Of a DNA stretch of 64,000 nucleotides, positions 9,734-51,739 are shown one piece after another. Below the pieces are notes generated by a model, which was given only the letters and a program-made list of their open reading frames with translations, did not search any database and was not told where the DNA came from. The position numbers and the translations under genes are program-made. Source of the DNA: an uncultured virus (IMG/VR IMGVR_UViG_3300027796_000194) (lineage: Duplodnaviria; Heunggongvirae; Uroviricota; Caudoviricetes); the IMG/VR virus record IMGVR_UViG_3300027796_000194; one strand, given 5' to 3'. Within the stretch, counting starts at the first letter, position 1, and every line of letters begins with the position of its first letter.

Positions 9734-11644
9734 TTACACAGACATACATATCTCATCATCACCAAACCACCCCTCCGACAGTACGTGTTGTTTCACAGCT
9801 TGCGGATTGGCGGAATAACAAACTATAGCCAGACTTTGTTGAGCGCGACTGCATGTAACGTACAACAAGCGGCGAGTTCTATCGATGCCAGTCTCTTCTC
9901 CTGCTTGTTCGTGTTCAATGTCCGTCTTTGTCTTTCCTTTTACACCAAACAGTTTTTCATAACTAAAAAGAAATCCGCGCGCCGATTCATCATCGATAAT
10001 AACCATCACGCGCGGGAATTGTAGACCCTTAACTCCTTGATGCGTGTCAAAATCAGCACAACCTTGGATGTACTCTATGTATCCTTCTAGCTGCGCAAAT
10101 TCGGAGATAAGCATTTTGTCCCACGCAGAAATCTGAGAGGAATCTTCTTCACTTTCCTCAGTGGTTGAGTCGATGGATTCCTCTGCGGCCTTCTGCTCTT
10201 CCTCACTTCTTGCGGCAATGGTCTGTAGTTTCCCCGGAATCTCAAAAAGCCCCGTTTTCTGAACAGAACGAAGAACATCAACAAATCGCGGCTCTTTCCC
10301 TTCCGTCCATAACAACAACAAATCTTCAACCGCCTTCCTTGCTTTGAGGATTTGTTCTGACTGCTTCTCTGGATTTGCCTTCAATGTTTCCTTGGACAGT
10401 AAAGGGGAAAACTTTCTAACGATTGCTGCAACCTTGAATTTGTCCCCGGCCTTTTGAGCCCTAATTAAAGGCAATACTTGATCGGAGAAAAACTTAATTC
10501 CTGCAAGGGAGCCATCTAAGAGACCGATGTTCAGTGTGCCTTGTTTATATAAAGGCTCGAACATCGGCAAAAAGCCCATTCGATGGGCCGCCATGTGATG
10601 TTCGAGTATAAGGGTCTTGACGCCGTTGTTTTGCCATTCCGGATCGCCAGTAACCGTTTGCATGTGGTTGGCGGCTTTTCGTTCAAGGGCCGGTTTACCT
10701 TCGGCTGCGCTGGGAAGAATGAATATCCGAACCCACCCATCTTCTTTATCTGATCTCGGCTTTTGTTCCTGTTCGTCAACAGCAGCCCGGATTTTATTTA
10801 TCAGCCGGATTATTCGCTTGGGACTACGGTGATTTATAGTTTTGGCTGGTCTAGCCCAGTCAGGGGGCAGATTGCGTCCAAGGTCAGGTTTCCCATCCGC
10901 ATAAATCCTTTGCATCATGTCGCCAAACAGACCTAAGCAGAACTGCTGTTCCCAAATTTTCTGAACTGCAAAAAACGATTCCATAAGTAATTTATTTGTG
11001 TCTTGGCTCTCATCGATCAACAGTACTGGAAATCGATTTACTAAAATTCGCTGCATTGTAGGCTTGTCTGTTAAAAACGAAGCCCCAATCTTTATCACTT
11101 CGCTATGATTTAAAGAATCTTTTCCAAGATTTTCACCATTCGGATTGTAGGTAAAAACCCTAATTTGATCGAGTTGAGCCAATCGCTCCTGTTTAGAAAG
11201 AATCGACCTCGCTCGGTCGGAAAAAGTTTTGGTTGTGTGGCTCTTCGCCTTGATTTGAAGTCCTTGGAGTTTTTCAACATCGCTGCGGAGGTTCTCTTTT
11301 AACCAAAGACGAATATCCGCGTTAAATCCTTTAATGAGAGACCAAACAAAACTATGAATCGTTGAAACTTCAATAAGCGAATCGTGATCGAGACGTTCTT
11401 CAATTTCATCCCGCGCCGCATTCGTATACGTAATAACTCCGACTCTTTGCCCCTTTAGCCGTAATTGTGAGGCACTTTCTTTGCGAAGGTCCCTTAGACA
11501 ATTAACAACCGACCGGGTCTTTCCTGAACCTGCGCCAGCAAAAAGAAAGAAGCTTTTTGGTTGAGAAAGATCAACGCACTTACCAATCTGAGCATCCACA
11601 GCTTTATCAATATCATCGTCTTTTATAAAAACTTCTGCGCTCAT
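9734..11644 (-). CDS. gajB: UvrD-like helicase, Gabija GajB-like
   Basis: Walker A 'AGAGSGKT', 'IDESQDT', 'GDMMQRIY', 'THQGVKGLQF', 'RRLLYVTCSRA'. Its start overlaps the end of the OLD nuclease gene. Confidence 0.85.
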   Translation of the reverse strand: MSAEVFIKDDDIDKAVDAQIGKCVDLSQPKSFFLFAGAGSGKTRSVVNCLRDLRKESASQLRLKGQRVGVITYTNAARDEIEERLDHDSLIEVSTIHSFVWSLIKGFNADIRLWLKENLRSDVEKLQGLQIKAKSHTTKTFSDRARSILSKQERLAQLDQIRVFTYNPNGENLGKDSLNHSEVIKIGASFLTDKPTMQRILVNRFPVLLIDESQDTNKLLMESFFAVQKIWEQQFCLGLFGDMMQRIYADGKPDLGRNLPPDWARPAKTINHRSPKRIIRLINKIRAAVDEQEQKPRSDKEDGWVRIFILPSAAEGKPALERKAANHMQTVTGDPEWQNNGVKTLILEHHMAAHRMGFLPMFEPLYKQGTLNIGLLDGSLAGIKFFSDQVLPLIRAQKAGDKFKVAAIVRKFSPLLSKETLKANPEKQSEQILKARKAVEDLLLLWTEGKEPRFVDVLRSVQKTGLFEIPGKLQTIAARSEEEQKAAEESIDSTTEESEEDSSQISAWDKMLISEFAQLEGYIEYIQGCADFDTHQGVKGLQFPRVMVIIDDESARGFLFSYEKLFGVKGKTKTDIEHEQAGEETGIDRTRRLLYVTCSRAQQSLAIVCYSANPQAVKQHVLSEGWFGDDEICMSV

Positions 11645-13956
11645 TTATTACACTCCGCCTTTGCGGTTAACCCCGTACCTTGCGATAAAATCTCTTCCTG
11701 CTTCTTCTTTAATTCGGCCCCAAGCCATTCAAGCCCCTCTTTTATGTAGGTGGGTATTTTCAAAGCTTGGGGGTCTTGCAAGAAAAGCAATTCTAACGAA
11801 AACTCTGCCTTGCTTTTGCATTCCTTCAAAATCTGAAAAAGTTCAGCCCCAAGTTCGGCACTTGTTGTTTTTGCACTGATTGCGTCCTTAAATTTCTTAA
11901 TCAACCCAGTTCCCACAAGACTTTTGAGCAATTTTAGGTTTTCATATGCAAACGCATCTTCAAAAGTGTTTGATAAAGCTTCTTCCTCTTGACCATTTTC
12001 GGCAAGAACAGCTTTTATCGGAATTTGGTATGCGACCCGAACGCCATTAGATAGGCTGTGTTTCTTCTCCTTCTTATCGGCAGTAAGACTTAGCAGGTCG
12101 TCAAGAGAACATTTTTCAGGAATCCATTTTTCTAAAGTAGCGTTTCCCGTAACAAGCCCTTGCCCGCGCACCGGCTGGCGAGATTGACGGTTAGCTTTCG
12201 GGTCTACGGCGTCAAGATCAGTGATGATTAAAGTCGTAAGACCAAGCTTATCAACAAGTGGGCGAAAACGATGGGCGTGGCTTCCGCCAATTTCAAGTAT
12301 GCTTATATACGCTTGGCTGAGTCCCTCGAACTGCGCCTGAATAAAATGTGGAACGAGCATTCGTTCCGCTGCCCCTTCAACAAGTATCGCGGCGTCTGCA
12401 AAAAATAAATCACAGTGAGTTGCTTTTAGATAGCGAGTTACAAATTTTTCCGTCTCATCTCCGGTCCCGAAAACCTCTGAAAGATTTTCGACGGTTGTTG
12501 TCGGCGCTTTACCGCCTTCTTCACAAGGCAGTCTTCGAAAATAACGAAGATCCTTAAACTCGCATTCATGGGCAATATGACTGGAGTGGGTGCTTACGAC
12601 AAGCTGCGTGCAAAGCGTCTCTTTATCTCCAAGCTGGTCGTGTTTGCGAAGGATGGCATACGCCTTGTTTATAAAAACCTGTTGCACCTGAGCATGCAAA
12701 TGAGCTTCGGGTTCTTCTATCAGAACAAGGTGCAGGGGCGCATGATCGAGGGACTCTCCTTCTTCAACGGGCCGCTTGGACGCTTTTCCAACTTTCATCC
12801 AGCTATCTCTAAAACTCATCAACCGGAAAACCATTGAGATCAGATTTTGGTATCCCAACCCGTTATATTCTTCTGGAAGACGTAAACTCTTGCCGTCGAG
12901 TTGCTGTACAACCTCATATTGAACAGCCGCACTATGATTGAGGCCATCTGTCGGACGAATCCTTGTTGCAATTGTAATTCTGGGATCGGTAACGCCGGGA
13001 TAACCTAATGCCTCGACCTCTTGAAGCGACGGCCCAAAACCGGTCTTTAGTCGTTCATCAAACAGTGATTGAGCGTCCTCGATAGCTTGAAGGGCCGCAA
13101 GATCGCTCGCCTCCGGCATATCGAATGGATCAAGATGCCTTGCATAATAAGAGCGAAGTTGTCCGGAGAGCCTTGGTTTTTCGTCACTGCTGTTAATATC
13201 GTCCTCAGCATCCGCAAATCCACTCGCGTCGGAGAACCCCCTTTGTGCATTAATTTGATTAATCCGAATTAGCCCCTTGAATGGGTCTCCATCAAGCGGA
13301 TCCGAGTCCATTGAGATAGGCTGAGGATTCGCTTTCCCACTCTCAGGCAATTTGCATTTGTCCTGATCTAAAATATAGCCCCTAACTTCAAAATGTCCCT
13401 TCAAACGACGGTCAAGAAAATCCCGCAAAGAGCAGGGCCACAGATTAACGGTTATTTTACTGGATTCGTCTTGCGGATTTTTTGCTGCTTCCTTTGCATC
13501 ACGAGCAGCGGTAGCAGCGGCAATAAACTCCTTATAAAGATTCTCAATTGATTTGGGCTCCAAGCGTAGCCGGACGCCTAATATGCCTTTTGTCCAATCA
13601 AGTGTTGGAAGCAGATGCCGAACATAATGGACTTCATTCTCCTTAACATCCAACCACACATCCAGCGCAGGCAGAAGTTTTTCCCACTTGGCAAGGTCAC
13701 GATCCTTGGCCTCATGCCCTCCTGCTTCTTCCAACCAAGCGGAACCAATCTCATTAATCGCAATCCAATTAGACAGCGTAAAATCATTTGTCGAAAAACT
13801 CTTACGCTCAACAAGAAATTGCCGGAGGGCAACCATTGCAGATGTTTTACCACTATTATTGGCTCCAACAAAAAGGGTTGTTTTTGAGGAGAAATCAATC
13901 CGAACGCTTTTCAGCTTTCGAAAGTTTTGAACTTCAACAAAAGCTATTCTCATCAT
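11641..13956 (-). CDS. gajA: OLD-family ATP-dependent nuclease (ABC ATPase + TOPRIM), Gabija GajA-like
   Basis: 'VGANNSGKT', 'IEEPEAHLH', 'STHSSH', TOPRIM 'LFFADAAILVEGAAE...ITDLD'. Confidence 0.85.
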   Translation of the reverse strand: MMRIAFVEVQNFRKLKSVRIDFSSKTTLFVGANNSGKTSAMVALRQFLVERKSFSTNDFTLSNWIAINEIGSAWLEEAGGHEAKDRDLAKWEKLLPALDVWLDVKENEVHYVRHLLPTLDWTKGILGVRLRLEPKSIENLYKEFIAAATAARDAKEAAKNPQDESSKITVNLWPCSLRDFLDRRLKGHFEVRGYILDQDKCKLPESGKANPQPISMDSDPLDGDPFKGLIRINQINAQRGFSDASGFADAEDDINSSDEKPRLSGQLRSYYARHLDPFDMPEASDLAALQAIEDAQSLFDERLKTGFGPSLQEVEALGYPGVTDPRITIATRIRPTDGLNHSAAVQYEVVQQLDGKSLRLPEEYNGLGYQNLISMVFRLMSFRDSWMKVGKASKRPVEEGESLDHAPLHLVLIEEPEAHLHAQVQQVFINKAYAILRKHDQLGDKETLCTQLVVSTHSSHIAHECEFKDLRYFRRLPCEEGGKAPTTTVENLSEVFGTGDETEKFVTRYLKATHCDLFFADAAILVEGAAERMLVPHFIQAQFEGLSQAYISILEIGGSHAHRFRPLVDKLGLTTLIITDLDAVDPKANRQSRQPVRGQGLVTGNATLEKWIPEKCSLDDLLSLTADKKEKKHSLSNGVRVAYQIPIKAVLAENGQEEEALSNTFEDAFAYENLKLLKSLVGTGLIKKFKDAISAKTTSAELGAELFQILKECKSKAEFSLELLFLQDPQALKIPTYIKEGLEWLGAELKKKQEEILSQGTGLTAKAECNK

Positions 13957-15313
13957 TCCCCCTATCATCCACAAAAACTTGGTTTTGGTCGCTCTCTGTA
14001 CCAGCTGTTGAATCTTGATGACTATGAATAACCGCCACGACAGCTTTTTTATCACGCAACACTGCATCTATAATTGTTGTAAAATCTTGGGTTTGTGCAG
14101 AAAATGAACCAATATATCCTGAGCGAAGCAGATCCATAAACGGAGATTGATGCAGAAATTGTCCATCAAGGCTTTCATACGTCAGACGAATTCCTCCGCG
14201 AGGACCTTTGCTTTTTGGGCTTTCAATATATTTCAGGTAATGATCTATGGGGAGGATAATGCCCCCGTGTCTGATGGCTCCGTCTCTTTTTACGAATTTT
14301 AGATAAAACGTTTCAGGATTAATTCGATATTCATGCGGGCCGGGGAGATGAGTTTTCGAGAACTTTTGCATCTTTTTAATTTGATCTTTTAATTTTTTAT
14401 CGGGGATATATTTCCAGTCACGCCCCCATTCTCCATCATATGGGTTAAGCATTTTATATTGCAGCATAATGATATTATTTTTTGTTTGGTTTAAATATAT
14501 AAGGTCAACCCCAAATGCCTCTTCGAGATTTCCTCGGTTCGCCGTATAAACTTCCAGTTGCTCGCCCGCTCTGCGAAAGACGGCTCGACCTGTAATGTCG
14601 CTATGAACTAGCTTATACCCCGGCATGTGTCTAGCATCATGCTCAACTACAGTGTCTTCTCTAAGACTAATCTGATCAAGCACCGATTCTCGTTTATCTG
14701 TCAGCTCAACTGATGTGGCTGGATCGTTGATCGTAAGACCAAAGGCACCCAACGCCGTACTAAGCGCATCAAGCTGGACTCCCTTAATAGTACGAAAGGT
14801 TTGTGGTGCGGAAATTGAAGCCTCAATCGCACGAAGGGTACTTTGGTTCGAGGGAAACGCCGCGAGTTTTTCTATGAGAAGACTGCTCAGTTTAGGGGTA
14901 AGATGGATAATAGAATCTGGGCTATTTAGCCTTGTTTTAAAATTCGTTGCATGTGGCTTCTCGGAGATCAGCTTTATAAGATCATCCTCAGAAGAAGGGG
15001 CAATCTGGGCGGCCTTTCTGACTTTAATTCTCGTGTCTAGCGTTGTTACACCGCCGCGTGAGCCAAGCACCCCCATAAAAAGGTTTTGTTTGTTGTCATC
15101 TCGCCCGACAAGGAGGCAAAGAGAAAGCGGGCTTATCCCATTTAATAAGCCATGAGGTTTTGCGAATGTAAATTCTGCGGTGCCATGTTTAGAACTACAC
15201 AACGCTTGCCATTCATCTTCACCAAACCGAATAACAACGACAGGTCTCTTTTCAACGGCTTTTTTAAGAGAGGAAAGCCAATCCGCCTTTATTTCTGAGG
15301 TATCAGCATTCAT
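13934..15313 (-). CDS. Putative PD-(D/E)XK nuclease with an unknown N-terminal domain
   Basis: 'LEEAFGVDLIYLNQTKNNIIMLQYKML' (D...QxK). Overlaps both neighbouring genes. Confidence 0.65.
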   Translation of the reverse strand: MNADTSEIKADWLSSLKKAVEKRPVVVIRFGEDEWQALCSSKHGTAEFTFAKPHGLLNGISPLSLCLLVGRDDNKQNLFMGVLGSRGGVTTLDTRIKVRKAAQIAPSSEDDLIKLISEKPHATNFKTRLNSPDSIIHLTPKLSSLLIEKLAAFPSNQSTLRAIEASISAPQTFRTIKGVQLDALSTALGAFGLTINDPATSVELTDKRESVLDQISLREDTVVEHDARHMPGYKLVHSDITGRAVFRRAGEQLEVYTANRGNLEEAFGVDLIYLNQTKNNIIMLQYKMLNPYDGEWGRDWKYIPDKKLKDQIKKMQKFSKTHLPGPHEYRINPETFYLKFVKRDGAIRHGGIILPIDHYLKYIESPKSKGPRGGIRLTYESLDGQFLHQSPFMDLLRSGYIGSFSAQTQDFTTIIDAVLRDKKAVVAVIHSHQDSTAGTESDQNQVFVDDRGNDENSFC

Positions 15314-16869
15314 GTTTTTCGAACCTCCGCGGGAATATCTTGCGGCATTCGCGGCAAGCTGACCTGACCCAAGGGAACTTCAAGATGAAGGTTCTTATGC
15401 AGAAATTCTACCGCATAAGACTCTGTGTCTCCATCCAGCATTGAAATGGATAAAGGAAATGTTTTCTGGACTGGCTGTGGAAGATTTGTCGCTGACAAAG
15501 TACACTTTATTGCTGTATTGCTGCCTTGCGGCATATTTTCTGGAATGGCAATCAAAAAAGAAACCCTTTTTGCCTTTTCTTGATGACGGAATTCCTCGCA
15601 ATCGAAGGAGAGGCTGTTACTACCTTCCTGACTACGCCAGTAAAATTCATCTCTTTCCCTGTTAACATCTAATGGATCAAGGCAGGAAGACAAAAAAGGT
15701 GAGAACCCATTTTCGAATAAACCCGTTTGTGACACAAAGGGATTTCGATATACTTTTTGCGGAGCCTTAGGTGGGAGAGGAAAAACAATATCATATTTGC
15801 TATTTTTATCTTTCGGTTTAGGCACACGGGAAAGCCTGATCGCTCCAAGGGCCTCTATCATTAAGATGGCATTTTGCGCAGGAACAGATCCTATATTATT
15901 AAGCGTAATAGTTATGCGCTTCACTCTCGAAGGAGCTTCAAGATTCTTGTTTAGGCATATAAAGAATGTCCGTGTTCTATCCACCCATTCAGGATATTCC
16001 TGTTCAAGATACGTTTGGATGGCTTTCTCACTTGGAGCTTCCCACTGCCTGTGAACATTCATTAGCTGAGAAATCGAATAAGCTGCTCCCGGCAACTCCC
16101 CAGCAGCAGCGGCATGCAGCTTTGACCCTGGCTTTGTTTTCTCGAAAACGGTTTGTTTAGGATGTAACTTTTGGGCTTGCTCTAACAAAGCATCAATCTG
16201 TCCATCTAGAAGTGCAGGAAAACGAACAAGGCTATGGGGTAATTTATGCGCTTTGTTCCCATCTGGATCTATCGCATCTATAACAATAGATGGGCTTTGG
16301 TTTTCTAGAACAGCTATGTGCTTTTCAAGTGCTCGGATCTTCTTTTCTGCCTCATCAGGTTCTCGAGGCAACCGCCAATGTGGACTGGTCTCATCTTCGT
16401 CCAGAGGAATATCTATAACACTTAGGCCCACATGACGTGCCGTGTCAGCCGCTCCACCATCATCGGTAAGGAATACTGCATCCGCCAAATGTGGGTTTGC
16501 CTTTTGCTGATCTAATATGTCCATAATCGCTCTATCATCTGGGCGATTTGGGTCAAGTATGTCCGGTTGAGATGCGCGAGGAACAGGCGACGGCAGCCAA
16601 AGGATTATTTTCGGATTTGTAGCCCGAAGTTCAATTTTGCCGTTCGCTCGGCTGGCATTCCGAAACTTTCCTACCCAATCTCTTGCTTTTTTCGAAATAC
16701 GTCCACGTCCAGCCGATTTAAGGCGGTCTATTTCTTCCCGTACAGTGCGGCATACAGCCAACGTTATCGTTTCTGCATCGGTGACCTCTGCCCACAGGCA
16801 TTCATCTGGAACTCGACATTCCAAGAAGAAGTTACTGTCTGGGAAAAGGATTATTTCAGAGTCCGCCAT
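15310..16869 (-). CDS. PIN-domain ribonuclease-like protein with coiled coil and beta-rich C-terminal domain
   Basis: 'FPDSNFFL...VREEIDRLK...PDDRAI...FLTDDGG' acidic PIN pattern. Confidence 0.75.
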   Translation of the reverse strand: MADSEIILFPDSNFFLECRVPDECLWAEVTDAETITLAVCRTVREEIDRLKSAGRGRISKKARDWVGKFRNASRANGKIELRATNPKIILWLPSPVPRASQPDILDPNRPDDRAIMDILDQQKANPHLADAVFLTDDGGAADTARHVGLSVIDIPLDEDETSPHWRLPREPDEAEKKIRALEKHIAVLENQSPSIVIDAIDPDGNKAHKLPHSLVRFPALLDGQIDALLEQAQKLHPKQTVFEKTKPGSKLHAAAAGELPGAAYSISQLMNVHRQWEAPSEKAIQTYLEQEYPEWVDRTRTFFICLNKNLEAPSRVKRITITLNNIGSVPAQNAILMIEALGAIRLSRVPKPKDKNSKYDIVFPLPPKAPQKVYRNPFVSQTGLFENGFSPFLSSCLDPLDVNRERDEFYWRSQEGSNSLSFDCEEFRHQEKAKRVSFLIAIPENMPQGSNTAIKCTLSATNLPQPVQKTFPLSISMLDGDTESYAVEFLHKNLHLEVPLGQVSLPRMPQDIPAEVRKT

Positions 16870-16945
16870 TAGTTAATACCCAACAATTTGCACAACAAAC
16901 CCTATACTGATCGGCTTGCCAGCACAATATTGTGGTTTTTCCCGG

Positions 16946-17030
16946 TTGACTACACGCCCGCTAATGCCCATCCTGTACAAAGAGGCGGAGAAAGTCCGTC
17001 TCTGGGGTGTAGTTACCTCTTGGTTAGCGG
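16946..17030 (+). promoter_or_regulatory. Promoter plus a1/b1-type antisense target sites (C4-like module 1)
   Basis: TTGACT-N17-CATCCT, then a hairpin. TAGTTA (17010) and TGGTTAG (17021) are complementary to unpaired regions of the downstream RNA. Confidence 0.65.
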
Positions 17031-17073
17031 TTCTAGCGTTGCCGTCACAAACGCTGCCTTTCGACCCCTATGG

Positions 17074-17154
17074 GCCGGGAGGCGGCGGTGTATGTCCAAG
17101 CCTCACGGCCAAAGGCCGTCGCAGTCGTCTAACCACGATTAACTAACTCCCGGC
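17074..17154 (+). ncRNA. C4-like structured antisense RNA, copy 1
   Basis: Three-way junction. P1 is GCCGGGAG/CTCCCGGC and the core is TGTATGTCCAAGCC-N4-GGCCAAAG. Homologous to 32585-32665 with compensatory changes. Confidence 0.7.
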
Positions 17155-17208
17155 TCGCCAGAGGAAACCTCTTCTGGCGAGCTGATTTGCTCTTAGCCGG
17201 GAGGAGTT

Positions 17209-17646
17209 ATGCAAAAAAGATCCATTCTGTTTGTTTTGTTCTTCTTGTGCGCCTGTGCAAACAGAAGTGCTCCAGCATATGCAACCAATAGCGCAACCAC
17301 AGCAAAACCAAGCCAACGATATGAACAGACCATGGCGCAAACACGCATGGATACGACAGTTTGTATTGCCAAGGCCAACGCTGCCGTTCCGGGGGCCGGG
17401 GACTTGCTTGATGCGCAGACCTTACGGGATCGGCTGCGTGTGATTGAATGGAGCAAGCTTGTTGAAGACTGTTCGAGAGAAAAAGGGCTTCCCTACCACG
17501 ACTATTCCTACCCCTCGCTGGACGATATGAAGCGTTGTGAACGTGATGGCAAAAATGAAATGCCCAATGCGAAGCGAGAAGAACAAAGTGCCTACCTTGA
17601 AAGCTGCTTAGAAGTCCAAGGCTTTACTTTCCCATGGTATCACTAA
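17209..17646 (+). CDS. Putative lipoprotein
   Basis: Signal peptide with lipobox 'LCAC'. Strong SD GGAGGAG. Paired cysteines. Confidence 0.75.
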   Translation: MQKRSILFVLFFLCACANRSAPAYATNSATTAKPSQRYEQTMAQTRMDTTVCIAKANAAVPGAGDLLDAQTLRDRLRVIEWSKLVEDCSREKGLPYHDYSYPSLDDMKRCERDGKNEMPNAKREEQSAYLESCLEVQGFTFPWYH

Positions 17647-17659
17647 TAGGAGATGGGTT

Positions 17660-18196
17660 ATGGCTCTAATCGACTGTCACGAATGCGGGAAGTCCATAAG
17701 CAGCAAGGCAAAGACGTGTCCTCAGTGCGGAGCGAAAAGAAAAAGCCATGTCGGACGGCTTCTTCTTGCCTACGTAATTCTGAGCATTATTCTCGGCAGT
17801 GGCGCGAAAACAATGATAAGCATCGAGAAAGCTGAAAAAGACAAACTAGAAACCGCTCGCGTCGCCGCTCTTACGCCTGAACAACGGGCCGCCGAAATGA
17901 AGCAACGGGCGTCCGAGCAGAAGGCACAGGCCGAAGCCGGAAAAGAAACAACGGCGGTCTATGTCTGCCGGGATTTTATCAAAAAAACGCTCAAAGACCC
18001 AGACTCTGTTGAATTTATTGGTATGTCCTCAGAAACGCCGGTCACCAAAGAAAAAGATGGCCTTTATAAAGTCGGCGTTGCCGCACGCGCTAAAAATAGC
18101 TTTGGAGCAACAGTTCCATCGGTTTTCTTGTGCCGCGCAAGATATGTTGGCGGAGATAATTGGACTCTTGTAAGCATGAAAGAAGCCCCCATGTAA
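17660..18196 (+). CDS. Zinc-ribbon membrane protein
   Basis: 'CHECGKSISSKAKTCPQCG', one TM segment, C-terminal 'LKDPDSVEF...AKNSFGA' domain. Confidence 0.8.
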   Translation: MALIDCHECGKSISSKAKTCPQCGAKRKSHVGRLLLAYVILSIILGSGAKTMISIEKAEKDKLETARVAALTPEQRAAEMKQRASEQKAQAEAGKETTAVYVCRDFIKKTLKDPDSVEFIGMSSETPVTKEKDGLYKVGVAARAKNSFGATVPSVFLCRARYVGGDNWTLVSMKEAPM

Positions 18197-20980: not shown

Positions 20981-21144
20981 AGTGGGGGTATCTCGAACGC
21001 GCTGGGGGTATGTTCGAGAAATCGTACCCCCAAATACCCCCGGATGCCAGCGATTTTCGCTGGTCGGCACTGGACGCTAAACCGTCATTTTTTGGCTGAT
21101 TTGCTGGGCTTTTTGAACTTCTTTGAACTTCCTTGGAAGTTCAA

Positions 21145-21292
21145 ATGGTGGACATAAGGGGAAAAAGATCGAACCAAAACATGCTTCAAGAACTTACCCG
21201 TTGGGGAGCCATCCTTAGTAATAGCTCAATGATTTCAGCTCGTTGTCACGCATCGACTTTTTAGCAATTCGATCCCCCTTTTGGGGATCGAA
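21145..21292. repeat. att core (tRNA-end-like), recombinase C-tail relic and hairpin
   Basis: TGGTGGACATAAGGGG, then a segment homologous to 237-354 (both encode GKRSN...E..RWGA.LSNSSMISA.C). Hairpin TTCGATCCCC/GGGGATCGAA at 21268-21292. Confidence 0.6.
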
Positions 21293-22124: not shown

Positions 22125-22331
22125 ATGACCTACACAATTTCTCAACGCGATGCGCTGAAACAGGCGATTGCGAGTGGCGTTTTGCGGATTTCTTATGATG
22201 GGAAGTCGGTGGAGTACCGCTCCCTTAGTGATTTGAAGGCCGCTTTGGCCGAGGTGGAGCAAGGCTTGGCGCGGGATAACGGCCAGCCACAAACGCGGCA
22301 GATCAAGATTTACGCCGACAAAGACCTATAA
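22125..22331 (+). CDS. Head-tail joining protein (gpW-like)
   Basis: 'ALKQAIASGVLRISYDGKSVEYRSLSDL', directly upstream of the portal gene. Confidence 0.85.
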   Translation: MTYTISQRDALKQAIASGVLRISYDGKSVEYRSLSDLKAALAEVEQGLARDNGQPQTRQIKIYADKDL

Positions 22332-32455: not shown

Positions 32456-32545
32456 TTGACCCAAGAAGGACTTACCTTCATTCTGGGCGCATGAAGGCAA
32501 GTTTCATACGCTTGCCTTCTGAGGATTCAAACCTCCGTGAGCGGT
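32456..32545 (+). promoter_or_regulatory. Promoter plus a1/b1-type antisense target sites (C4-like module 2)
   Basis: TTGACC-N17-CATTCT, then a hairpin. GAGGATTCAAA (32521) and CGTGAG (32536) are complementary to the downstream RNA. Confidence 0.65.
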
Positions 32546-32584
32546 ATGACATCATCCGTTAAGGATGTCGCCTTTCGGCTATGA

Positions 32585-32665
32585 CGCCGGGGGGCGATAC
32601 TGTATGTCCAAGCCGTAAGGCTAAAGAGTATCGCACCGATCTCACGTCGGTTTGAACCTCCGGCG
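32585..32665 (+). ncRNA. C4-like structured antisense RNA, copy 2
   Basis: P1 CGCCGGGGG/CCTCCGGCG, P2 GCGATAC/GTATCGC, core TGTATGTCCAAGCC-GTAA-GGCTAAAG, P3 ACCGA/TCGGT. Confidence 0.7.
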
Positions 32666-32716
32666 ACCAGCGGAATTTGCCGCTGGTCGATAAAATCAAA
32701 CCGAAGGGAAACACCG

Positions 32717-32881
32717 ATGAACGACATCTCCACTTGGCAACTTTGTTCGGACTTTTTGAAAGCCTATTTGGGCGATCCGATCATATTGACGCTTTTACTT
32801 CTCCTGATTATGGGCGTAGGCGTGAGCCTGCGCTTTAAGAAAATCGAAAAGAAACTGCTGCCAAATCGTAAGGCACCATAA
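32717..32881 (+). CDS. 54-aa single-TM peptide with basic tail (not in ORF track)
   Basis: MNDISTWQLCSDFLKAYLGDPIILTLLLLLIMGVGVSLRFKKIEKKLLPNRKAP, with SD-like AAGGGA upstream. Confidence 0.6.
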   Translation: MNDISTWQLCSDFLKAYLGDPIILTLLLLLIMGVGVSLRFKKIEKKLLPNRKAP

Positions 32882-33140: not shown

Positions 33141-33270
33141 GTTCCTTTGAAAAGGCACGCCAAAAGGAACTGTTGCCTTCATAGTCCCGCATGGTCTTAT
33201 ATGAGGGCAACAACAAAGAGAGCGGGTCGTGTCCTCGCGGCCACGCTCTTTCTTTGAAAGAGAGTTTGAT

Positions 33271-33681
33271 ATGTCCTTGATCCACTGGAACAACGATTTG
33301 AGCGTCGGCATCCCCTCTATCGATGCGCAGCACAAAAAGCTCTTGGATTTACTCAACGAGCTGCACGGTGCGACCTATCAGGGAAAAGGACAGGAGGTCG
33401 TTGGCAACACGTTGGCCGGACTTATCAGCTACACGGTTGAACATTTTCAGTATGAAGAGAAGCTGTTCAAAGAAACAGGCTATCCCGAAGCGGAAGCACA
33501 CGCAGCCGAGCATGTTATCCTGACCAAGAAAGTCATGGACATTCACGAGAAATTCAAAAGCGGCATCACAACAGCGTTGACGCAAGAAGTCCTCCTGTTC
33601 TTGGTCAATTGGCTTATGGACCACACGATGGACAGCGACAAAAAATACAGCGCGCATTTAATCGCCGCTGGGGTTCAATAG
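33271..33681 (+). CDS. Bacteriohemerythrin
   Basis: 'W...LSVG...ID.QH', 'HFQYEE', 'H...H', 'WLMDH....D': the di-iron ligands appear complete. Confidence 0.92.
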   Translation: MSLIHWNNDLSVGIPSIDAQHKKLLDLLNELHGATYQGKGQEVVGNTLAGLISYTVEHFQYEEKLFKETGYPEAEAHAAEHVILTKKVMDIHEKFKSGITTALTQEVLLFLVNWLMDHTMDSDKKYSAHLIAAGVQ

Positions 33682-48406: not shown

Positions 48407-51400
48407 TCACTTCGGCGGCGCGATTGCTTTTAGCTCAGGGCGCTGCCTTGGCAGTTTTGGCGGAACCAGCGGCCCGCGTATTCTTAGTCTTTCGCTTTGC
48501 GCGTCGAAAGCGCGTTCCATGTCCTCCATGTCCCTGATCGCACGGGCGTGGGCCCGATGGTGCGCGGCGGCGCGGGCCTCGTCCAAACGTCTAGCAAAGC
48601 CCTCGAAGCTTACCTGCGCTTCGTTGAGGCGCATGACCTGTCCGTTGAACTGCCTTATCTTGCCGATGGTACCCATCACGTTCTGCTGACCTTCACGGAT
48701 CTGCTTGCGCAAAAGCTGATGATAGGAGTCTTCATCCTCACGAAGACCCGTGACGTATCCCCGGACAAGGCCGTCGAACTTTTCGAGGTGTGGGTCTTTC
48801 ACCGACTCCAGCGCGGCATCCATCAGCATAACGTCTTTGCGATCACGCCGCTTTTTGGAAGGTGCCAGTTCGGCACGACGCGACACGGCGTCGCCAACCG
48901 TCTTGATGTCGTCCGGCAGATCATATCCGGTCAAGGGCGTGTCAAAATAGGCCTCCAGCTCCTTGCGCGTTTCCACGCCCTTTTCAGGGAGAACGGCAAG
49001 TTCTTGCGAGACTTCTGGGGCCAACACCTCGGCCTCGAACATCTCCGGCATCGGAGCCGTGCGACTTGTTAAAGCGCGTGGTGGTGGCGGGCCAAGTTTG
49101 GTGGGCGTGACCAAAGGGGGCTGGACAAGATAATCGCCTCTGTCGAAGTCAAAGAACTTCTCGCGGACTCTCCCATATTTGCGCAATTTGTTGGCGTAGC
49201 GCACCCAATCCCCCGAAGACCAGCCACTTACGGCACCGCTTCGGATTTCTCCAAATAACTCACGGCTGGTTGCTAGATTGGCGCGGTGCTCTTCCAACAG
49301 TTCCGTCAATACCTCATGACTGTTAGCCAGAGCGGACTCCATCTTCCCGTTTCCGGTAACGAGTTCATGCTGCCGCTCGACGGTTTCGTTTATATACTCC
49401 TTGGTGGCATCGTGAGCTTCCATGACGGGATCAAGTTGATCCCTGACCATCTTCATGGCCGCACCGCGCATGTCCGTGTAGTCCTTCCAGCAAACAAACT
49501 TCTCGCGTACCAGTTTGTATCGCTGCCATGAGGCGGCGGCTATGCCCGTCAACATCAACGCGCCAAACGTGATTCCGGCAGCCATAATTGAACCGCCGAC
49601 ATAGCAAGTCGTAGCGACTCCGGCTGCGGTCGCGGCCTTGACGTATGGACTGCGGAAGAAACTGTTAAAGAAGCCGGGCTTTTCATTGAACTTGTCCAGC
49701 CGATACCGCGCTCCGAGATACCTTTCGCAGGTCTCTTTAACGCCTTGCCCCCATTCGGAAAGCTTCGCGGGAGCCGTCCACGCGACAGGATTCTTAGGCA
49801 CCCAATTCAGCTTGCTTTCGTCCAAATTGAACCCCTCCAGATCAACGGGCGGCATCGGCTTCAGCCGTACAACCGTCTTCTTGGGCGGATCGGGGAAAGC
49901 AGGAGCTTCAGGTATAGGCGGGCCTTCCGCACGCTCCCTCAAAAACGGTATTTCATAGTATCGCGCCTGCTGGTCCAAAGTGCAATGGCTCTGCTTCCTG
50001 CCGCTGATAAAAAGGATCTGTTTTTCACCGGAAAAACAATCTTCTATCTGACGGGCATCCATTCCATCTATGACAATGGGCTGATAAGACAGGTTATAAT
50101 TCGTGCTCCAACTCTCGTTGTTGTTGCGCCCCTTTTGCGTGGTTTCGCTTTCAGCGGTGCCTCCCCCCTTGGAATCGGTCTTGCCGGACTGGGTTGACTC
50201 ACCTTGCGTGTCAGCCGTGCCGTGGGAGGTCGATGTCGAGCCACCCGATCCGGAACTTGATCCACCGGGACCGGACATGCTGCTCCAAAAGTTAGAAAGC
50301 GTTGTTACGATGGAGTTCGTTTTTTGGGCCGTCCTTCCGACAGAGTTTGAGACCGCGACTTGCCAAGTATTTTGGTCAACCGTTCCCTTGGCGACAGACT
50401 CTTGCTCCCCAACGCCGAGTTGGATTCCCTGTCCTTCGCTCACGGTCGGCACATAGACCATGTAGCGGCCAAGACGCTTGCTGATATATTCAATCGATTT
50501 GGGTTCGTGACTGCGAAGAAACTGGACGACTTCCGAAGACCCAAGAAAAGCGGCGGCTCGTTCTTCGCCGTAAACATCCCTCAGACTTGCGTAGTCCTGA
50601 AACAAGCTCCAAAAGATGATGCCTTTTTGGCGTACCGTTTGAGCGCCCGTCGCAATGGCCTGAAGATGCCCCAGTTGCGTTAACTCATCGATCATGAACA
50701 GGATGCGGTCTTCCTTCTTAAAGTCTTTTCCTCCATTGCCCGGATTAGGCGTGCCATCAATTGCGCTTTGCAAAATAAGACGAAGCCACGGCTGATAATT
50801 GATATACTCGTCAACGTTCGGCATGACGATGTAGATCGTCGTTTTTTTGCCACGCAGGTCCATCATGGAGAAGTCCGAGGAAACCATGTGCTGACCAAGA
50901 CAATCATCAGCCATCCATTTGTCTAACCATTGGGAAGTCGCCGTGACGACGGAGCGCACGTTCTGGTCTCCGGGTTGGGCCGTGCTAAGATAATTTCCGA
51001 ACTTATTCAGCAATCTTTGATGCGGGCCGCGCCACCCTGTTAGCTCTGCAATGTGTTTGTCCCACGCTTCCGACGGAAACTCGCTGAAGATTTTTGCCAT
51101 ATAAACAAAATTCTTGTGCTCATAGGGTATTGTGTCTGCCAGCTTCAGATAGACGATCATCGCCGCAATAAGACCGCTCGGATTTTCCCTAAAATAGGGA
51201 TTTTGCTCCTTATGTCCCTGCGAATCTGATATGAGAGCAGATGACATTGTTAGAATGCGGCTATAAAAATCAGGCTCCTTTGGATCTAGATCGTCCATAG
51301 GATTGTAGTTGCTTGATCCCAATCCGATGATGTTCTGGGGATCAAAAATATAAATATCCTGCCCAAGAGTCCATTTGCGATGATTGTAAGTCCTCTTGAA

Positions 51401-51739
51401 CGTAGCCCCGCCGATCTCAAGGGAAACAACGGAGCCTGCATAGGATAAAAGGTTAGACGTTGCCGAAGCGGCGGTCTTTCCCGATCCTGTATTGCCTATG
51501 ACGTTCCCGTGCGTTTCAACATCCTGATAAATAGGCACGCCATTATACGCGCCGACAATGAGACCATGGGGATCAGCAAGACAATCCGATCCATTGTCCA
51601 TGACGTTCTGGACGGAAATGAGTGCCTTGTTGTCGGCATGGTATTGAACGGGGGCTATATTGAAAGGCCGTTCAATTGCCCTGTCCAACTTCGTGAGGAC
51701 TTGGAGTTCCTCTTTTTTCTTTTCCAAAACTGGGAGCAT
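48407..51739 (-). CDS. VirD4/TraG-like coupling ATPase with Ser/Thr/Gly-rich insert and C-terminal TM/coiled-coil extension
   Basis: Walker A 'GNTGSGKT', 'YNPMDDL', Walker B 'FMIDELTQLG', 'FQDYASLRDVYG'. Confidence 0.85.
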   Translation of the reverse strand: MLPVLEKKKEELQVLTKLDRAIERPFNIAPVQYHADNKALISVQNVMDNGSDCLADPHGLIVGAYNGVPIYQDVETHGNVIGNTGSGKTAASATSNLLSYAGSVVSLEIGGATFKRTYNHRKWTLGQDIYIFDPQNIIGLGSSNYNPMDDLDPKEPDFYSRILTMSSALISDSQGHKEQNPYFRENPSGLIAAMIVYLKLADTIPYEHKNFVYMAKIFSEFPSEAWDKHIAELTGWRGPHQRLLNKFGNYLSTAQPGDQNVRSVVTATSQWLDKWMADDCLGQHMVSSDFSMMDLRGKKTTIYIVMPNVDEYINYQPWLRLILQSAIDGTPNPGNGGKDFKKEDRILFMIDELTQLGHLQAIATGAQTVRQKGIIFWSLFQDYASLRDVYGEERAAAFLGSSEVVQFLRSHEPKSIEYISKRLGRYMVYVPTVSEGQGIQLGVGEQESVAKGTVDQNTWQVAVSNSVGRTAQKTNSIVTTLSNFWSSMSGPGGSSSGSGGSTSTSHGTADTQGESTQSGKTDSKGGGTAESETTQKGRNNNESWSTNYNLSYQPIVIDGMDARQIEDCFSGEKQILFISGRKQSHCTLDQQARYYEIPFLRERAEGPPIPEAPAFPDPPKKTVVRLKPMPPVDLEGFNLDESKLNWVPKNPVAWTAPAKLSEWGQGVKETCERYLGARYRLDKFNEKPGFFNSFFRSPYVKAATAAGVATTCYVGGSIMAAGITFGALMLTGIAAASWQRYKLVREKFVCWKDYTDMRGAAMKMVRDQLDPVMEAHDATKEYINETVERQHELVTGNGKMESALANSHEVLTELLEEHRANLATSRELFGEIRSGAVSGWSSGDWVRYANKLRKYGRVREKFFDFDRGDYLVQPPLVTPTKLGPPPPRALTSRTAPMPEMFEAEVLAPEVSQELAVLPEKGVETRKELEAYFDTPLTGYDLPDDIKTVGDAVSRRAELAPSKKRRDRKDVMLMDAALESVKDPHLEKFDGLVRGYVTGLREDEDSYHQLLRKQIREGQQNVMGTIGKIRQFNGQVMRLNEAQVSFEGFARRLDEARAAAHHRAHARAIRDMEDMERAFDAQSERLRIRGPLVPPKLPRQRPELKAIAPPK

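Follow-up and report, generated by a model that had tools for sequence, protein, structure and literature searches.

A conserved cloverleaf RNA cassette with cognate upstream targets in an uncultured virus and its predicted role in the control of downstream genes

The leader of a putative lipoprotein gene in an uncultured virus (IMG/VR record IMGVR_UViG_3300027796_000194) is a real, conserved regulatory RNA cassette, here called copy 1, for which a mechanism is predicted. From sequence comparison it is evident that the cassette combines a cloverleaf RNA ending in NCCA with upstream sites complementary to it and with a strand (anti-P1) that can pair with its closing helix P1, that the 3' strand of P1 overlaps other elements of the transcript, and that a downstream target is absent. 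In our judgement there is about an even chance that the cassette is a self-priming latch that turns its cargo on with a delay.

Copy 1 and its surroundings

The window, which is the whole stretch of 64,000 nucleotides analysed, lies within a 73,292-base virus record and represents a prophage stretch, and from the titles of the records containing homologues the host of the virus probably belongs to the Alphaproteobacteria. Lambda-like head and tail genes begin at 22125, and to their left are found an integrase, AlpA and a helix-turn-helix gene on the minus strand as well as a defence-rich stretch with Gabija. Copy 1 is placed between this integrase/AlpA/defence side and a divergent PIN-like gene, and the lipoprotein and zinc-ribbon genes follow (Table 1). 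DNA contigs bear out the stretch, and a diverged relative spans positions 16302-17713. Among 15 runs listed, none with RNA appeared, which counts as evidence for neither side. In distant blastn searches no phage record matched copy 1 and one 24-nt plasmid match to a homologue was obtained, and a tRNA search found none in the window.

Several further features were seen in the record. A 113-nt direct repeat (76% identical, 233-345 and 21143-21255) flanks a 21-kb defence-rich stretch beside the integrase, and the repeats are possibly attachment sites or duplicated target sites. The Gabija GajA/GajB pair is located at 9734-14067 and shares this stretch with two DUF5677 genes, an Mrr-type nuclease and a PIN-like gene. 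In the divergent intergenic region there is a perfect 12-bp palindrome (16923-16934), separated by 11 bp from the -35 box that follows it, and this is a possible operator. Inside the tail operon, copy 2 is followed by a hemerythrin gene (33229-33681), and a gene for a VirD4-like coupling protein (48407-51739) is present within the virus record.

Table 1. Features of copy 1 and copy 2 and their positions in the window
Feature	Position	Strand	Basis or remark
Likely sigma-70-type promoter, TTGACT-17-CATCCT	16946-16974	+	sequence and family position; TTGACT at 16946-16951
5' hairpin H1, predicted transcript start	16981-17003	+	present in all folds modelled
Upstream target block GGGG-b-CCTC-a-GCGG	17004-17031	+	exact complements of b' and a'
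b site TAGTTA	17010-17015	+
a site TGGTTAG	17021-17027	+
Hairpin H2, without U-tract after it	17034-17056	+	fold; 3' strand overlaps anti-P1 strand
Anti-P1 strand, pairs with 17072-17087 (helix H3)	17052-17067	+	fold and family duplex energies
Predicted mature cloverleaf RNA, 89 nt, GCCA end 17157-17160	17072-17160	+	fold, RF02221, covariation
P1 of cloverleaf, ten pairs, then GCCA (tRNA-like)	17072-17081/17147-17156	+
P3 loop a' (CTAACCA)	17129-17135	+
Junction b' (TAACTA)	17140-17145	+
Hairpin absorbing CCA and the P1 3' end	17151-17184	+	fold; family overlap 77/83; weak U tail in copy 1
SD region AGCCGGGAGGAGTT	17195-17208	+	can pair with P1 3' strand and junction, or with free target block
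145-aa putative lipoprotein, hydrophobic N-terminus, Cys14/Cys16	17209-17646	+	without family
178-aa zinc-ribbon protein with hydrophobic segment, PF13240	17660-18196	+	second gene of likely operon
Copy 2, after the tape-measure gene	32456-32881	+	RNA 32585-32669; different a/b code
54-aa membrane ORF of copy 2	32717-32881	+	downstream of copy 2 RNA

A preliminary description had placed a C4-like antisense RNA switch at this site, and all sequences that it named were present at their positions when checked against the DNA. As to its promoter, the TTGACT box is there, the -10 box reads CATCCT (8/12 consensus bases in all) and a promoter scan gave 0 sites and did not call the copy 1 promoter. 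Because of this, the assignment rests on the position at family level, where a promoter-like site lies 21-36 nt 5' of the target in 40 of 62 homologues as compared to 7.3 by shuffling. The hairpin noted before the targets corresponds to H1, and a' and b' are the exact reverse complements of the a and b sites in antiparallel order, an arrangement reached by 1 of 100,000 shuffles of 16952-17071 in a post hoc test. The a' and b' segments had been described as unpaired, which is mostly correct, one base of each (17135 and 17140) being inside the P3 stem. The three-way junction, with P1, P3 and a P2 stem that contains a conserved internal loop, is the minimum free energy (MFE) fold of 17066-17160 (z -3.4). 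The predicted RNA is longer than the approximately 80 nt foreseen, and its tRNA-like end had no place in that description. The P2 internal loop (17090-17113) is strongly conserved across the family and may serve protein binding or tertiary contacts.

Two alternatives to the cloverleaf can be formed by the same transcript. In an SD-occluding fold of 17140-17215 (z -6.5), the P1 3' strand CTCCCGGCT (17147-17155) pairs with its complement AGCCGGGAG (17195-17203) over the SD, and another fold (z -3.05) has the targets paired in cis with the RNA. Both the anti-SD pairing and the pairing of the upstream strand with the 5' side of P1 were part of the early proposal and both are found family-wide. The second copy was also recovered, and copies 1 and 2 cross-pair poorly, with cross-copy duplexes of -11.4 and -14.6 kcal/mol as compared to cognate duplexes of -22.9 and -30.1 kcal/mol. 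The leader of copy 1, with its -22.9 kcal/mol, ranks first among 85 upstream regions for its own RNA.

The RNA family and its target sites

Relatives were collected with a search motif common to copies 1 and 2, whose patterns predetermined the internal loop and some of P1, and 43 metagenome loci, 61 genome loci and 15 viral loci were obtained. The viral pattern matches were mostly copy 2 or chance, only two of them (L109 and L113) being new members. Duplicates, one false match and 13 loci failing a P1 test were filtered out, and by eye two false passes were removed and two broken-P1 loci restored, which left 92 members; the 85 distinct ones with enough leader were used for the leader tests. 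A covariance model was built, and it finds 2 copies in the virus record and scores copy 1 at 81.7 bits (in-sample). When 151 genomes from the order of genome G001, whose locus L050 is titled Micavibrio, were searched with this model, matches were detected in 96 of the 151 genomes of this one alphaproteobacterial order, with up to 15 per genome and mostly private codes, and in five genomes 2, 10, 3, 15, and 4 copies were counted. For a second set, 60 of the 150 listed matches were taken, about one per genome down the ranking, and its 59 new loci were chosen on the RNA alone. In the pooled set, from which one misparsed locus was dropped, 138 of 143 loci have NCC(A/G). As members share ancestry, the family counts, which ignore kinship, are not independent.

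Conservation of the RNA is evident from its pairing. In P1 and P2, 92.3% of cells pair and 16 of 24 pairs show two-sided changes, which was reached by 0 of 500 shuffles (slid controls 41-48%), and pairing in P3 (61.9% paired) is under-counted because of MAFFT misalignment of this stem. The isolated RNA folds P1 in 61 of 61 cases. CCA directly follows P1 in 84/92 members of the first set and in 55/59 of the second, G is found at +1 in 127/138 and U at -1 in 96/138 family members. A CCA end, G at +1 and U at -1 are determinants of RNase P, and with them the transcript may be processed by RNase P to a discrete RNA. A coding role for the RNA was considered and rejected, since an ATG is located at the 5' end in 90/138 members but the ORFs comprise from 4 to 100 codons. 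At the gathering score, Rfam gave nothing in the window, nor in 16 homologous loci.

In the leader test, the P3-junction segment of each RNA was paired against all 85 leaders, and the own leader ranked first for 63 of the 85 RNAs, copies 1 and 2 included. An exact b site occurred in 77/85 cognate pairs as compared to 89/6794 non-cognate pairs, with 29 different b' codes among the 85 members, and the complement to a had a mean length of 6.8 nt in cognate versus 3.2 nt in non-cognate pairs. Similarly, b was exact in 53/59 cognate versus 120/3210 non-cognate pairs of the second set. Within single genomes, in a test that covered 30 of 34 matches in five genomes, the cognate leader was the best for 7/10, 8/11, 4/4, 3/3, and 2/2 copies. 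The anti-P1 strand forms a duplex of -22.6 kcal/mol with the cognate RNA, of -18.1 with non-cognate and of -13.3 with shuffled RNA, and with its own RNA it beats the row average in 73/80 cases (median rank 11). What had been suggested, an antisense RNA of the C4/CI kind whose upstream targets are cognate, thus holds across the family.

The full working layout of C4 and CI, which had been transferred to copy 1, is not supported, as the family lacks a cognate downstream target. A downstream a2/b2 target was put to four tests and, for the family, rejected. Among 83 members the cognate region was first in 1/83 with a median rank of 39 (chance), an exact downstream b was present in 2/62 members and in 3/59 of the second set, and a downstream complement of at least 7 nt was found in 14/138 family members versus 6.1% of non-cognate pairs. 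In the positive control, which consisted of 24 loci over the sRNA-Xcc1 cut-off (L152-L175), 21 of them parsed, such a complement was detected in 12/21 versus 10.1% of non-cognate pairs. Downstream of copy 1 there is only a 5-nt AGTTA match before the start codon (rank 74/83), and downstream of copy 2 a longer junction match was seen by eye (rank 10/83). A U5 tract before the RNA occurred in 2/138 family members versus 13/21 true sRNA-Xcc1 loci, a count to which Rho-dependent sites are invisible. Because there is no cognate downstream target, direct repression by the RNA is not expected, and control of the cargo must be conformational and may be activating.

Some loci depart from the common pattern. 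L065 has the same antisense segment as L013 and a related cargo gene, and its leader has lost the b site, which amounts to a natural target deletion. Tandem RNA pairs about 400 nt apart and with the same a'/b' code occur in three genomes (L219, L221, and L222), and in these the parsed copy has no SD-linked ORF after it.

Relation to known RNAs and nature of the cargo

Statements on published systems follow the excerpts of the cited papers. The Rfam models C4 and c4-2, whose use had been proposed in the preliminary description, and also IsrK gave no match at E up to 10, and the sole relevant match of the relaxed search was a sub-threshold one to sRNA-Xcc1 (RF02221), copy 1 scoring 31.7 and copy 2 33.6 bits (cut-off 53) with model positions 1-87 aligned for both. 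The family shares with sRNA-Xcc1 the three-way junction, including the presence of an internal loop in P2, and a similar size (88 nt; PMC2996969), and true members carry GGGG-b-CCC-a-GCGG upstream, with a complement of at least 7 nt in 17/21. The sequence of the internal loop, in contrast, is unlike that of the cloverleaf family. True sRNA-Xcc1 loci have downstream sites around the SD (12/21) and a U-tract terminator before the RNA (13/21) and rarely RCCA (2/24), whereas the cloverleaf family has NCCA, the anti-P1 strand and the anti-SD instead; 2/19 of the former precede Bro-N or Rha proteins. The most fitting place for the cloverleaf family is that of a sister branch of sRNA-Xcc1 that is so far uncatalogued, and a description of this branch was not found in the literature covered, most subscription papers being outside it.

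Most of the true sRNA-Xcc1 loci L152-L175 show the full C4 layout with downstream b and a flanking the SD of the next gene. According to this control comparison, sRNA-Xcc1, which was published as an sRNA acting in trans, seems mostly to regulate the operon it belongs to in the manner of C4. No report of such a role was found within the same literature coverage, and it is directly testable in cultured bacteria.

C4 of P1/P7 (RF01695) resembles the family in its three stems, variable a' loop, b' junction, location in a leader and G at the predicted RNase P site (PMC5320573), and c4-a1b1 in its upstream a1/b1-type sites (motif in PMC2864571). C4 is processed by RNase P and occludes the ribosome-binding site (PMC5320573), whereas the cloverleaf family has neither an RBS-occluding downstream target nor icd/ant genes, and the RNA of copy 1 has 89 nt versus about 77 nt for C4. 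In the case of P4 CI, a processed leader RNA pairs with a site further upstream in the transcript from which it derives, and downstream seqC is required (PMC4825925); the cloverleaf family differs in lacking an equivalent of seqC and a U-tract terminator between target and RNA, and its cargo is not a replication operon. For IsrK from Salmonella Gifsy-1 (RF01394), a structural homologue of P4 SeqA, it was demonstrated that a short RNA from the locus switches on a self-trapped transcript in trans (PMC4825925). IsrK is the upstream, SeqA-like part, whereas the predicted effector here is the CI-like cloverleaf; copies 1 and 2 have no Rfam IsrK match and the family has no conserved internal ORF. 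The cloverleaf family resembles C4/CI in the predicted action of a leader RNA on upstream sites and possibly IsrK in the outcome, trap and relief of the IsrK type having been modelled for P1 folding, with a mixed modelled effect on the SD. The Group 1 C4-like sRNAs of Acinetobacter baumannii are likewise present in many copies per genome with variable a' loops, and RNA-seq indicates their processing, but they are discussed as acting in trans on phage or host RNAs, not on cognate leader and cargo (PMC5320573).

In phages, C4/CI RNAs are known for their part in immunity, in which they repress antirepressor or replication operons. Here the same chassis, below the Rfam cut-off, stands before surface and anti-phage genes and forms sets of several copies with private codes. 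Among the first downstream proteins of at least 90 aa, a hydrophobic N-terminus was present in 36/53 versus 57/288 neighbouring ORFs and a lipobox in 18/53 versus 3/288, counts that depend on crude rules and start calls in related lineages, and in the second set the values were 36/48 and 14/48. The envelope bias of the cargo, noted before for copy 1, is therefore a property of the family. Antirepressor families (Bro-N, Rha, Ant, KilA) were found in none of 83 proteins or 48 more. PADLOC, applied to 12 cytoplasmic cargo proteins, identified two UzuA and one PD-T4-3 (E < 1e-90), and other cytoplasmic cargo has Mrr-type or GIY-YIG domains. The cargo is unrelated between copies, and an SD-linked ORF is missing in 11/59 of the second set. 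Flanking ORFs (100 of 198 scanned) encode recombinases, ArdC, methylases and transposases, but core genes are found as well, among them relA, lepA, and corA.

The copy 1 lipoprotein has one clear relative (46% identity), no Pfam, PHROG or PADLOC match and no fold match over TM 0.5, and a strict lipobox rule did not score it. Its weak matches to large Fn3 proteins and Atlas feature matches (0.80-0.81) were taken as noise. Superinfection exclusion, put forward earlier for this cargo, would be a guess for a protein with one clear relative and no family, and no similarity to a known Sie protein was found in the Pfam, PHROG, PADLOC and fold searches. The zinc-ribbon protein matches PHROGs of unknown function, and a search with it gave 20 proteins at E up to 1e-10, the query among them. 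In genome G004, which has 15 copies, several of these (L137, L142, L146, and L149) precede ORFs that by eye start like prepilin N-methylation proteins, the SD following about 5 nt after the RNA end without a terminator.

Folding models and possible modes of action

The 3' strand of P1 is shared with two other elements. A hairpin starting at CCA is present in 83 members of the pooled set, has a U-rich tail in 71/83 and reaches three pairs into the P1 strand in 77/83, and the P1-end bases at the base of this terminator form 2.41 Watson-Crick pairs in cognate versus 1.50 in non-cognate combinations. The SD is GGGAG in 41/68 members with a CUCCC P1 strand versus 8/42 others, and in 16/137 background genes. 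Members with a CACCC/CATCC P1 strand lack the anti-SD and have a GGGAG SD in 3/16.

A bound RNA was modelled by equilibrium folding with the target block forced unpaired, which is a crude stand-in. In transcripts ending at CCA, the median cost of closing P1 fell from 11.3 kcal/mol in the free state to 0.2 kcal/mol with targets blocked, the drop exceeding 2 kcal/mol in 98/100 members and in 57/61 of a smaller set, and P1 stayed unformed (0.001) when a control stretch was blocked instead. Because of this fall in cost self-priming is predicted, that is, within these models the cloverleaf RNA likely promotes its own maturation, copy 1 being the exception. Copy 1 is the only member of 100 with a low naive P1 cost (1.0 naive and 1.7 bound at the CCA stage). 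Its SD is mostly paired in every modelled state (0.04-0.20), and its AUG opens (0.92) only when the transcript is bound and P1 closed, which costs 9.5 kcal/mol at full length. In the full-length form the RBS is covered by the P1 strand or, when P1 is closed, by the free target block.

Since the RNA likely promotes its own maturation, it would probably also switch the cargo on after a delay. According to the folding predictions, a naive transcript would trap itself by the anti-P1 helix and by pairing of a/b in cis with a'/b', so that no cloverleaf would form and the terminator or the anti-SD helix would be complete. A mature RNA of the same code could cover a/b in trans, and P1 could then close. 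By analogy to C4, RNase P would cut at G17072 and yield more RNA. Closing of P1 would release both brakes, as terminator base and anti-SD use the P1 3' strand and would be withheld, and cargo expression might not rise until the element has become established, or might do so in a subpopulation only. With private codes, many cassettes could latch independently. Delayed activation, to which we lend half of our confidence, is favoured over a tentatively considered repression because the P1 3' strand serves both as the anti-SD and as the base of the terminator.

Repression of this kind would be C4-like and allosteric, without downstream targets: in the naive transcript the anti-SD strand would be held by a GGGG-b helix and the cargo translated, and mature RNA would then free the anti-SD or route the transcript to processing, so that a burst of expression is followed by shut-off. 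This course is possible, though rather doubtful. Target blocking lowered SD access in 53/100 and raised it in 3/100 members, while anti-SD pairing rose from 0.22 to 0.59, and the GGGG flank is conserved. Equilibrium SD access over 100 members was 0.33 for naive transcripts; in the bound state it was 0.15 when P1 was open and 0.27 when P1 was forced shut, so forced P1 fails to restore the naive value (it was below naive in 39/100 and above in 19/100). C4 and CI repress (PMC8198154, PMC4825925), and in integron cassettes sRNA-Xcc1 lies ahead of symE, a toxin gene (10.1101/2025.06.18.660453), which are also in line with repression. However, CACCC/CATCC members have no anti-SD to free, and where they possess a terminator, the naive transcript leaves the base of this hairpin free, so that a bound RNA could only weaken the terminator. 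Terminator-less members (13 of 14 parsed, seven of the 13 from one genome) open on processing, with SD access increasing from 0.18 naive to 0.35 processed (up in 8/13, down in 1/13), and it would be hard to rationalise why defence genes, UzuA and PD-T4-3 for example, should be shut off for good. Against delayed activation, in turn, P1 survives in only 20/62 processed long transcripts.

It is unlikely that self-priming sets the RNA level only, the RNA acting on other targets or on same-code incoming elements and the cargo being expressed by unregulated read-through. Such a role would suit cargo that is unrelated between copies or, in 11/59 loci, without an SD-linked ORF, a conserved internal loop that could bind protein, and the description of sRNA-Xcc1 as trans-acting (title of Chen 2011, cited in PMC12189769), but the P1 strand covaries with the terminator base and the SD word, which ties folding to cargo expression, and 29 b' codes in 85 members fit private better than shared targets. 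That the repeats act as DNA (a recombination site or the end of a mobile element) or have decayed and yield no functional RNA, as many copies in mobile or variable regions might suggest, is highly improbable given the G-U-tolerant covariation in P1 and P2, the NCCA ends, the strand-specific promoter and SD, and the 88-nt RNA seen on northern blots for the relative sRNA-Xcc1 (PMC2996969).

Returning to delayed activation, a more speculative extension is that a C4 branch lost its repression targets and became a portable, protein-free positive-feedback latch with private two-part codes and memory in the RNA pool, by which as many as 15 genes per genome, for surface proteins or defence, could be switched independently. 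Were the latch real, it would offer an RNA-only delay of toxic defence genes after transfer, such as an establishment delay for defence nucleases, RNA-based variation of surface proteins between cells (phase variation), and a natural library of orthogonal riboregulators. Minimal variants of the cassette were seen in genome G002 (L145 and L150), in which H2 is missing and the anti-P1 strand comes directly after the a site.
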